Shown piece by piece: positions 1,221-7,141 of a stretch of 64,000 bases of DNA. A program made the position numbers and the translations under genes. This DNA is from Escherichia coli. GTDB lineage: Bacteria > Pseudomonadota > Gammaproteobacteria > Enterobacterales > Enterobacteriaceae. Location: NCBI RefSeq assembly GCF_016026235.1, contig NZ_CP065613.1. One strand, written 5' to 3'. Position 1 is the first letter of the stretch, and each line of letters starts with the position of its first letter. The notes beneath the pieces were generated by a model. It saw only the letters and a list, made by a program, of their open reading frames with translations, was not told the origin of the DNA and ran no database searches.

Positions 1221-3602
1221 ATGGCAGATAATCCAGACCCTTCATCGCTCCTGCCGGACGTGTTTTCACCGGCGACCCGCGACTGGTTTCTTCGCGCCTT
1301 TAAACAGCCGACCGCTGTCCAGTCGCAAACCTGGCATGTGGCGGCGCGAAGCGAACATGCGCTGGTGATTGCACCGACCGGCTCCGGGAAAACGCTGGCA
1401 GCATTTCTCTACGCCCTCGATCGGCTCTTCCGCGAAGGCGGCGAAGATACCCGCGAGGCGCATAAGCGTAAAACCTCACGCATCCTCTATATTTCACCGA
1501 TAAAAGCCCTGGGCACCGACGTTCAGCGCAACTTGCAGATCCCGTTGAAGGGTATTGCCGATGAACGGCGGCGGCGCGGCGAAACGGAAGTCAATCTTCG
1601 CGTAGGGATCCGTACTGGCGATACGCCTGCACAGGAACGCAGCAAACTCACCCGTAATCCGCCGGATATTCTGATCACCACACCCGAATCACTCTATCTG
1701 ATGCTGACCTCCCGCGCGCGCGAAACGCTACGCGGCGTCGAAACGGTAATTATTGATGAAGTCCACGCGGTAGCGGGCAGTAAACGTGGTGCGCATCTGG
1801 CGTTAAGTCTGGAGCGGCTCGATGCGCTGCTCCACACCTCAGCACAGCGAATTGGCCTTTCTGCCACTGTGCGCTCAGCCAGCGATGTGGCAGCATTTCT
1901 TGGTGGCGATCGCCCGGTTACGGTAGTCAACCCGCCCGCAATGCGCCATCCGCAGATACGAATTGTCGTACCGGTCGCCAATATGGATGATGTCTCATCG
2001 GTCGCCAGCGGCACCGGCGAAGACAGCCATGCCGGCCGGGAAGGCTCCATCTGGCCATATATTGAAACGGGTATCCTTGATGAAGTGTTGCGCCATCGCT
2101 CGACCATTGTCTTTACTAATTCACGCGGGCTGGCGGAAAAACTGACGGCACGATTAAATGAGCTTTACGCCGCACGCTTACAGCGTTCCCCGTCTATCGC
2201 CGTTGATGCGGCCCATTTCGAGTCGACCTCCGGCGCAACCTCTAACCGTGTACAAAGTAGCGACGTTTTTATTGCCCGCTCACACCACGGCTCCGTCTCT
2301 AAAGAACAACGAGCAATCACCGAACAGGCGCTGAAATCGGGTGAATTACGCTGCGTGGTCGCAACCTCCAGTCTTGAACTGGGGATTGATATGGGCGCGG
2401 TGGATCTAGTGATTCAGGTGGCAACGCCGCTTTCTGTTGCCAGTGGGTTACAACGCATTGGTCGCGCCGGACATCAGGTTGGCGGTGTATCTAAAGGGCT
2501 GTTTTTCCCCCGTACCCGGCGTGATTTAGTCGATTCCGCAGTCATTGTAGAGTGTATGTTCGCAGGCAGGCTGGAAAACCTGACACCACCGCATAATCCT
2601 CTCGACGTCCTTGCGCAGCAAACCGTTGCCGCCGCGGCGATGGATGCATTACAGGTAGACGAATGGTACTCCCGCGTACGCCGTGCCGCACCGTGGAAAG
2701 ATCTGCCAAGACGTGTTTTTGACGCCACGCTGGATATGCTTTCCGGGCGCTATCCCTCTGGCGATTTTTCTGCTTTTCGCCCCAAACTGGTCTGGAACAG
2801 GGAGACCGGGATATTGACCGCCCGACCTGGCGCTCAATTGTTGGCGGTTACCAGCGGCGGCACCATTCCGGATCGTGGCATGTATAGCGTGTTATTACCC
2901 GAAGGTGAAGAAAAGGCCGGTTCGCGGCGGGTGGGTGAACTGGATGAGGAGATGGTATATGAGTCGCGGGTGAACGACATTATCACTCTCGGCGCTACCT
3001 CATGGCGGATCCAGCAAATCACCCGCGATCAGGTGATTGTGACTCCTGCTCCGGGTCGTTCTGCCCGGCTCCCCTTCTGGCGTGGTGAAGGTAACGGACG
3101 TCCGGCTGAATTAGGCGAGATGATCGGCGATTTTCTTCATTTACTGGCGGATGGCGCGTTCTTTTCCGGGACTATTCCCCCGTGGCTGGCAGAAGAAAAT
3201 ACGAACGCCAATATTCAGGGGTTGATTGACGAGCAACGCAACGCGACGGGCATCGTTCCGGGGAGTCGCCATCTGGTCCTCGAACGGTGCCGTGATGAAA
3301 TTGGCGACTGGCGTATTATTTTGCACTCTCCCTATGGAAGACGGGTGCATGAACCCTGGGCGCTGGCGATTGCCGGGCGAATACATGCCCTATGGGGCGC
3401 TGACGCGTCTGTGGTCGCCAGTGATGACGGCATTGTTGCGCGCATTCCTGACACTGATGGTAAATTGCCCGACGCCGCGATTTTTTTGTTTGAACCAGAA
3501 AAGTTGCTGCAAATTGTCCGCGAGGCGGTAGGCAGCTCGGCACTTTTCGCCGCCCGTTTTCGCGAATGCGCCGCGCGGGCATTATTAATGCCGGGGCGCA
3601 CT
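1221..3602 (+). pseudogene. lhr: Lhr large ATP-dependent helicase, 5' portion (~794 codons) interrupted by IS insertion
   Basis: Translation shows helicase motifs (GSGKT, DEVH, QRIGRAGH); reading frame runs without a stop into the IS terminal repeat at ~3603. Confidence 0.9.
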
Positions 3603-4897: not shown

Positions 4898-7141
4898 GGG
4901 CGCACTCCGGGCCATCGCACCCCGCTTTGGCAACAACGGCTGCGCGCCAGTCAGTTGCTGGAAATCGCTCAGGGATATCCGGATTTTCCGGTCATTCTCG
5001 AAACCCTACGCGAATGTCTGCAAGATGTTTATGATCTTCCCGCACTGGAACGTTTGATGCGTCGCCTGAACGGTGGCGAAATTCAAATATCCGATGTAAC
5101 GACCACTACGCCCTCGCCTTTCGCCACAAGTTTATTGTTCGGCTATGTCGCGGAATTTATGTACCAGAGCGACGCCCCGCTGGCAGAGCGCCGGGCATCC
5201 GTACTGTCGCTGGACAGCGAGTTACTGCGCAATCTACTCGGACAGGTCGATCCGGGGGAATTACTCGACCCGCAGGTCATTCGCCAGGTGGAAGAAGAGT
5301 TGCAACGACTGGCTCCTGGCAGAAGAGCGAAAGGTGAAGAAGGATTGTTCGACCTGCTGCGCGAACTGGGGCCAATGACCGTTGAAGACCTGGCGCAACG
5401 GCATACAGGCAGCAGTGAAGAGATTGCGTCGTATCTGGAAAATCTTCTTACAGTAAAACGAATCTTCCCGGCGATGATTAGCGGACAGGAGCGTCTTGCC
5501 TGTATGGATGATGCCGCCAGGCTGCGCGATGCCCTCGGCGTACAACTACCAGAGTCTCTGCCAGAGATTTATTTGCATAGAGTCAGTTACCCGCTTCGCG
5601 ACCTCTTTCTGCGCTATCTCCGGGCTCATGCTCTGGTCACGGCTGAACAACTGGCTCATGAGTTTAGTCTCGGTATTGCCATTGTCGAAGAGCAGCTTCA
5701 GCAACTGCGTGAACAGGGTCTGGTGATGAATCTGCAACAAGACATCTGGGTGAGCGATGAAGTATTTCGTCGTCTGCGTTTGCGCTCGCTGCAAGCCGCC
5801 AGAGAAGCGACGCGTCCCGTTGCAGCCACGACCTATGCGCGATTGCTGCTGGAACGTCAGGGCGTATTACCCGCCACCGATGGTAGCCCGGCGCTCTTTG
5901 CCTCAACATCGCCAGGCGTTTATGAGGGCGTAGATGGCGTGATGCGGGTGATCGAACAGCTTGCCGGAGTCGGTTTACCCGCCTCACTCTGGGAAAGCCA
6001 GATCCTGCCTGCCCGCGTACGCGACTATTCGTCAGAAATGCTCGATGAATTACTGGCAACCGGTGCAGTTATCTGGTCGGGGCAAAAAAAACTGGGTGAA
6101 GATGACGGCCTGGTGGCACTGCATCTACAAGAATATGCTGCAGAATCGTTCACTCCCGCCGAAGCGGATCAGGCGAATCGTTCGGCGCTGCAACAAGCGA
6201 TAGTCGCTGTTCTGGCTGACGGAGGAGCCTGGTTTGCACAACAAATCAGCCAACGGATACGCGACAAAATCGGCGAATCGGTTGATCTCTCTGCCCTGCA
6301 AGAGGCGTTATGGGCGCTGGTCTGGCAAGGCGTCATCACCAGCGACATTTGGGCACCGTTACGCGCCCTCACCCGCAGCAGTTCCAACGCACGCACCTCA
6401 ACTCGCCGCAGTCACTGGGCTCGTCGTGGACGTCCTGTCTATGCGCAACCCGTCTCGCCGCGGGTATCTTACAACACACCAAATCTGGCTGGACGCTGGT
6501 CGTTATTGCAGGTGGAGCCACTAAACGATACCGAAAGGATGCTGGCGCTGGCGGAAAATATGCTCGACCGCTACGGCATCATCAGTCGTCAGGCGGTGAT
6601 AGCCGAAAATATCCCTGGCGGGTTTCCATCGATGCAAACGCTTTGTCGAAGTATGGAAGATTCCGGGCGAATTATGCGAGGTCGTTTTGTAGAAGGTCTG
6701 GGTGGCGCGCAATTCGCTGAACGTCTGACTATTGACCGCTTGCGCGACCTGGCGACACAAGCCGCGCAAACGCGCCACTATACACCAGTGGCGCTCTCCG
6801 CCAACGATCCGGCTAATGTGTGGGGAAATCTTCTGCCCTGGCCTGCACATCCGGCAACGCTGGTACCAACGCGTCGGGCGGGTGCGCTGGTGGTCGTTTC
6901 TGGCGGCAAATTGTTACTCTATCTGGCGCAAGGTGGCAAAAAAATGCTGGTCTGGCAGGAAAAAGAGGAATTACTCGCCCCAGAGGTTTTCCAAGCGCTG
7001 ACTACCGCACTGCGTCGCGAACCACGGCTGCGCTTTACGCTAACAGAAGTGAATGATCTACCGGTCCGGCAAACGCCGATGTTTACGCTGCTGCGTGAAG
7101 CGGGATTTTCAAGTTCGCCACAAGGGCTGGATTGGGGATAG
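4898..7141 (+). pseudogene. lhr: Lhr helicase, 3' portion (C-terminal domain) separated from 5' portion by the IS
   Basis: Frame continuing directly from the target-site duplication (GRTPGHRTPLWQQRLRA...) to stop at 7139-7141; the two lhr parts minus the duplication sum to ~1538 codons. Confidence 0.88.

Follow-up and report, generated by a model that had tools for sequence, protein, structure and literature searches.

In the 64,000-nt stretch of Escherichia coli DNA analysed here (from contig NZ_CP065613.1; hereafter the window), the helicase gene lhr is present as two halves separated by about 1.3 kb. This raises the question of what the intervening DNA is, how it came to lie there and whether it can still move. 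An original prediction, made by a model from the sequence, had placed an IS10-like (IS4-family) insertion sequence (IS) at this position. On the basis of sequence comparison, we put at about 95% the probability that the intervening DNA is a copy of the catalogued element ISEc60 (IS4 family, IS10-type), inserted in lhr as a solo IS. The insertion falls after codon 794 of 1538 and, as judged from the reading frame, splits and inactivates lhr.

A discrete element between the halves of lhr

The lhr coding sequence reaches ...ATGCCGGGGCGCACTC, where it gives way to a block that starts CTGAGGAATCCCCAGAAAA and finishes TTTTCTGGGGATCCCTCAG, and it resumes with GGGCGCACTCCGGGCC. The block is a discrete element of 1294 bp with a G+C content of 44.5%, versus 56.8% for lhr. 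It is bounded by terminal inverted repeats of 19 bp that match at 18 of 19 positions, the match stopping past position 19, and both ends begin CTGAGG, as had been proposed. When the whole window was searched for the inverted-repeat pattern with up to three mismatches, two matches were found where 0.01 would be expected by chance, and these correspond to the two ends of the element. A repeat finder returned a 12-nt direct repeat, GGGGCGCACTCC, at positions 3593-3604 and 4897-4908 (spacing 1304 nt). The outer G and C of this 12-mer are the element's own last and first bases, which resolves the repeat into a 10-bp target duplication, GGGCGCACTC. The interval originally assigned to the insertion, 3594-4907, coincides exactly with the element plus both copies of the duplication.

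A direct repeat of 9-10 bp, of the size made by IS10-type transposition, had been described at the flanks. The repeat is present, but both the reading frame and other insertion sites give it a length of 10 bp and not the 9 bp of IS10. Joining position 3603 to 4907, as a 9-bp duplication implies, yielded a frameshifted lhr with 24 stops. Moving the boundaries of the IS by one base in order to save a 9-bp duplication was also excluded: the duplication begins with G, A or T depending on the site, and a base of the element therefore cannot absorb the extra base. Excision of 1304 bp (1294 + 10, joining 3603 to 4908) restored a single open lhr frame of 1538 codons. A 1000-bp reconstruction of the empty site was matched with at least 80% query coverage in 4381 E. 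coli genomes in a complete-genome search; the best matches were 100% identical over the full 1000 bp, and every match was annotated lhr. With the flanks identical to intact lhr and the frame restored when a 10-bp duplication is assumed, the proposed clean insertion is borne out. FDAARGOS_943 has an intact lhr, with 2 differences in 4617 nt from the gene reconstructed from the window; the empty site is present there exactly, with a single copy of GGGCGCACTC, and the flanking pair is thus not a feature of the uninterrupted gene.

The lhr frame runs stop-free through the 83-nt leader of the IS into the transposase frame and ends at a TGA at 4401-4403. The resulting open reading frame (ORF; 1221-4403, 1060 aa) joins lhr codons 1-794 to transposase codons 1-238 through 28 leader codons, and a Pfam search of its product identified DEAD, Helicase_C, WHD_Lhr, DEAD_assoc and a weak DDE_Tnp_1. 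In public protein records this fusion ORF was found on a single contig (UGFA01000002.1 of GCA_900449985.1). Because the frame continues to the new TGA, gene prediction returns an Lhr-transposase chimera of 1060 aa and, apart from it, a C-terminal ORF of 728 aa; the two should not be counted as separate genes. In the bearing strain lhr is best annotated as a pseudogene split by a named IS whose copy is, by its predicted product, itself dead. Beyond annotation, the importance of this is small. The features of the locus are collected in Table 1.

Table 1. Coordinates of the interrupted lhr gene and of the element within it (window positions).
Feature	Position	Strand	Evidence or remark
5' part of lhr, codons 1-794 and first base of codon 795	1221-3603	+	ORF list, reconstruction, Pfam
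Left copy of 10-bp target duplication, GGGCGCACTC	3594-3603	none	single in uninterrupted lhr of FDAARGOS_943
ISEc60 copy, 1294 bp, 44.5% G+C	3604-4897	+	one mismatch to annotated ISEc60 copies
Left terminal inverted repeat, CTGAGGAATCCCCAGAAAA, at the end adjoining the transposase start	3604-3622	+	repeat match
66-nt hairpin over Shine-Dalgarno (GGAG) and transposase ATG; candidate RNA-OUT-like antisense RNA	3628-3693	-	folding, conservation, sub-threshold Rfam match
Transposase frame, 396 codons in intact copies (WP_001111632.1), stop-interrupted here	3687-4877	+	ORF, family models, alignment
Premature TGA at codon 239; AGA (Arg) in intact copies	4401-4403	+	sole base differing from reference copies
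Right terminal inverted repeat, CTGAGGGATCCCCAGAAAA	4879-4897	-	GATC (Dam) site within, at 4888-4891
Right copy of 10-bp target duplication, GGGCGCACTC	4898-4907	none	direct-repeat match
3' part of lhr, remainder of codon 795 to stop	4908-7141	+	ORF list, reconstruction, Pfam

Identity of the element and state of its transposase

Among 5426 complete E. coli genomes compared by megablast, CFSAN029787, RMDEC332/364 and VL46 (on chromosomes and large pINV-type plasmids) as well as FDAARGOS_943 have matches to the 1294-bp element over its full length at 99.9% identity, which carry the annotation "IS4-like element ISEc60 family transposase" (WP_001111632.1). Base by base, the window copy is identical to the reference ISEc60 copies at 1293 of 1294 positions, the sole difference being a T at 4401 in place of the reference A. 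By the ISfinder convention, copies with more than 95% DNA identity are isoforms of one element. In the literature, ISEc60 was found listed in a mobile-element table, the element itself not being described there.

Family searches were carried out using the transposase with codon 239 repaired. This sequence scored 360.5 bits with NCBIfam model NF033591 (IS4 family transposase; cutoff 152) and matched Pfam DDE_Tnp_1 (PF01609) with an E value of 2.8e-20, while its scores with the other NCBIfam models (IS4, IS1634 and IS701) were below their cutoffs. The nearest named relatives identified by tblastn against plasmids were ISSfl1 (52% identity), IS10A/ISVsa5 (36%) and ISEc29 (32%). In a three-way alignment of ISEc60, ISSfl1 and IS10A, residues D97, D160 and E289, which we take to correspond to the IS10 catalytic residues D97, D161 and E292, are invariant, as is the YREK signature (Y282-R285-E289-K296). 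Size, ends and repeats were also considered. The IS4 family is defined by the signature Y-(2)-R-(3)-E-(6)-K, in which E is the glutamate of the Asp-Asp-Glu (DDE) triad, and its IS10 subgroup is described as having a length of 1200-1350 bp, 5'-CT ends, the YREK signature and 9-bp direct repeats (De Palmenaer et al., PMC2266710, Table 1). ISEc60 has the size, the 5'-CT ends and YREK in common with this subgroup; its 10-bp repeat is a small departure from it, within the "about 10 bp" of the IS4 family. Among the IS4 subgroups, the transposase is closest to the IS10-type, as ranked by sequence identity and family models.

The family placement originally predicted is thus upheld by NF033591, DDE_Tnp_1 and YREK. 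The protein had been estimated by eye as roughly 40% identical to the Tn10/IS10 transposase, related yet distinct, and 35-36% was measured against IS10A. The further suggestion of a different member of the IS10 group holds insofar as the element is distinct from IS10, but it is not an unnamed one, being 99.9% identical to ISEc60.

The original prediction did not include the in-frame TGA at 4401-4403. This stop replaces R239, between D160 and E289, and removes the C-terminal 40% of the transposase, including the catalytic glutamate E289 and the whole YREK motif. Because the transposase is truncated before the catalytic glutamate, the window copy cannot move on its own, and it is by this reading of its sequence non-autonomous, though its ends are intact.

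Two points weigh against this account of the element. The name ISEc60 rests on RefSeq (Prokaryotic Genome Annotation Pipeline, PGAP) annotation of near-identical copies and not on ISfinder, and the stop codon depends on one base of one assembly, which may be a sequencing error. It is nevertheless improbable that the copy is truly an intact, autonomous ISEc60 with an assembly or sequencing error at 4401. While the copy departs from the reference copies at this T alone across 1294 bp, and the fusion ORF with the TGA is known from one contig only, single-base substitution errors are uncommon in finished assemblies. Furthermore, decayed ISEc60-type copies with frameshifts and internal stops occur in other genomes, which makes inactivation ordinary for ISEc60. 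A little less probable again is that the nonsense codon was selected, whereby in-phase translation from lhr would yield a fusion of Lhr and transposase escaping the element's own translational control, and loss of the transposase would relieve the cost. Consistent with this, lhr, leader and transposase share one frame in ORF 1221-4403, stop-free before 4401; however, nothing indicates that a fusion with an 822-residue N-terminal extension is active, IS copies commonly decay neutrally, and the fusion is a single case. We favour a genuine stop codon in a copy of ISEc60 that is decaying in the ordinary way.

Target choice, recency and course of insertion

Other ISEc60-type copies were drawn from annotated genomes and a gene-position index. 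It was found that all 16 independent sites, comprising 15 ISEc60 copies (the window copy included) and one 85%-identical relative, have duplications of exactly 10 bp; at one plasmid site, which occurs in both orientations (L004, L005), the length reads as 11 bp inside a homopolymer run. The 16 sites share a roughly palindromic target consensus, cG|GGG-N4-CYC|Cg, with G before the duplication in 15 of 16, C at the last base of the duplication in 16 of 16 and C after the duplication in 15 of 16. The lhr site, ccgGGGCGCACTCcgg, fits this consensus. Several sites are G/C-clamped hairpins that adjoin T-runs or are otherwise terminator-like, for example the ftsH-folP spacer CCCCGGGGCGTGCTCCGGGGTTTTTT, and some adjoin hok or ibs toxin genes. 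We tentatively suggest, at somewhat less than even odds, that within the IS10 group ISEc60 and the elements closest to it make up a sublineage with a 10-bp stagger and a specific quasi-palindromic 14-bp site, often in G/C-clamped terminator-like hairpins. If true, the target rule of this sublineage would explain how approximately 38 copies accumulated in one lineage of E. coli, with many insertions between genes, and, if absent from ISfinder, it would be a small new fact on transposase target choice. The 10-bp duplication and the target consensus are modestly useful for recognising ISEc60 insertions. Both the stagger and the sharp consensus are only mildly new, and ISfinder may already record them.

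Head-to-tail tandems of ISEc60 with exactly one 10-bp unit (GGGATTTACC) between the copies were also observed (L003 301-1894, L017 215-1711 and L020/L021), on a pINV plasmid and on chromosomes of enteroinvasive-type E. coli. In CFSAN029787 (L001 3001-5926), two ISEc60 copies with identical duplications lie 1632 bp apart within repeated ibs/sib toxin loci. Such tandem or paired copies may have arisen by unequal recombination or by repeated hits on a repeated hotspot.

FDAARGOS_943, which carries ISEc60 at about 38 places, is the closest relative of the window: over 25 kb (window 29901-54893; NZ_CP065615.1 1023076-1048070) the identity is 99.9%, with the next best genome at 99.1%. The genome of the window probably belongs, on this similarity, to the ISEc60-expanded lineage. 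The same lhr insertion was found in none of the 5426 complete E. coli genomes among the matches listed, and the lhr of FDAARGOS_943, read directly, is intact. From the empty site of the closest relative, and with no complete E. coli genome found to share the insertion, we infer that the insertion is recent and lineage-specific, in a background of ISEc60 expansion.

The course of events can be sketched from what is known of IS10 and IS50. ISEc60 would have entered lhr by non-replicative cut-and-paste, catalysed by its DDE transposase and proceeding through hairpin intermediates. Strand transfer would have been staggered, the target cuts being separated by 10 bp in a site that agrees with the above consensus, and gap repair would have duplicated GGGCGCACTC. 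The AGA-to-TGA change at transposase codon 239 would have arisen afterwards. The locus is thus an ordinary, decaying insertion of an already known element. While IS10 forms Tn10, and tandem, closely spaced ISEc60 copies are known in other genomes, we give almost no credence to the idea that the element is a composite-transposon arm or part of a larger mobile unit: the window contains just two end sequences, both bounding the single element, and no second copy, the 1294 bp abut the 10-bp duplication at either end, the sequence on both sides is contiguous lhr, and the next 50 kb downstream is collinear with ordinary E. coli chromosomes.

Elsewhere, the window (rnt-lhr-grxD ... ydh, suf, pykF, ydi) is ordinary chromosomal DNA of E. 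coli, and many strains are collinear with it. It includes a complete IS1 copy of 768 bp at 21772-22539, bounded by GGTAATGACTCCAACTTACTGAT / GGTAATGCTGCCAACTTACTGAT and flanked at 21763-21771 and 22540-22548 by a 9-bp duplication, CGTGAAGCG. The ORF broken by this copy starts at 20560 and is apparently ydhS. In some E. coli genomes that match the IS1 stretch full-length, the annotation reads "FAD-NAD(P)-binding protein (x2)", and these genomes probably share the insertion.

Leader hairpin and comparison with IS10 and ISSfl1

The leader hairpin has a predicted free energy of -33.7 kcal/mol on the plus strand and -32.4 kcal/mol on the minus strand (z -7.2 and -6.8, respectively), with 0 of 200 shuffled sequences as stable. 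It is kept in five elements, namely ISEc60, relatives with 85% and 82% DNA identity, ISSfl1 and a Salmonella relative with 50% protein identity. For two of the base pairs, pairing is preserved through compensatory changes that fall in the non-coding bases immediately 5' of the ATG. On the plus strand, the predicted hairpin would sequester the start codon of the transposase. The Rfam model of RNA-OUT (RF00240) aligned end-to-end with the minus strand (3694-3624), with a weak score of 16.8 bits (gathering score 41) and an E value of 6.8. In the control, IS10A scored 85.9 bits; its RNA-OUT has its 5' end 7 nt past the A of the ATG, and the offset in ISEc60 is equal. Past the hairpin, the minus strand has a U-rich tail, UCUUGUUUUCU. 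Of the two ends of the element, only that distal to the transposase start carries GATC, in GGGATCCCC; two more GATC are located in the hairpin stem.

By analogy with IS10, these features raise the possibility that the ISEc60 transposase is subject to antisense, fold-back and Dam control, via the leader hairpin and the GATC of the right end, and we regard the evidence for and against as evenly balanced. On the negative side, the RNA-OUT match is far below threshold, nothing in an Rfam scan of the element reaches its gathering score, and RNA-OUT had no Rfam match at E values up to 10 in ISSfl1 or in the 85% and 50% relatives. A consensus scan near the leader also gave no promoter for either the transposase mRNA or an antisense RNA. 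By eye, a putative extended -10-like motif, TGGCATAAT, is seen on the minus strand at 3708-3700, inside conserved coding sequence.

A comparison with known elements places the window copy as follows. The reference ISEc60 copies have the same length of 1294 bp, the same ends, 10-bp duplication and target consensus, and the window copy departs from them by the A to T change at 4401 that creates the stop at codon 239. The closest differently named relative is ISSfl1 of Shigella flexneri (IS4 family; 52% transposase identity), the termini of which are nearly those of ISEc60 (CTGAGGAATCCCCAGAAAA). The leader hairpin is common to both, with compensatory changes. In contrast, the duplication at the single ISSfl1 copy examined is 9 bp long (CCTGAAGGG), and the site is unlike the GGG-N4-CYC target of ISEc60. 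IS10A of Tn10 shares with ISEc60 the size class, 5'-CT ends of the form CTGA..(A/G)ATCCCC, a transposase with DDE and YREK, and a GATC solely in the end distal to the transposase start. In both elements a hairpin of approximately 70 nt covers the translation start, with the minus-strand version starting at ATG+7, although the hairpin sequence of ISEc60 is not recognisably homologous to IS10 RNA-OUT (16.8 versus 85.9 bits). The two elements further differ in their transposases (35-36% protein identity), in the length of the duplication, 9 bp in IS10 and 10 bp in ISEc60, and in target choice, the IS10 hotspot NGCTNAGCN being different from the ISEc60 consensus.

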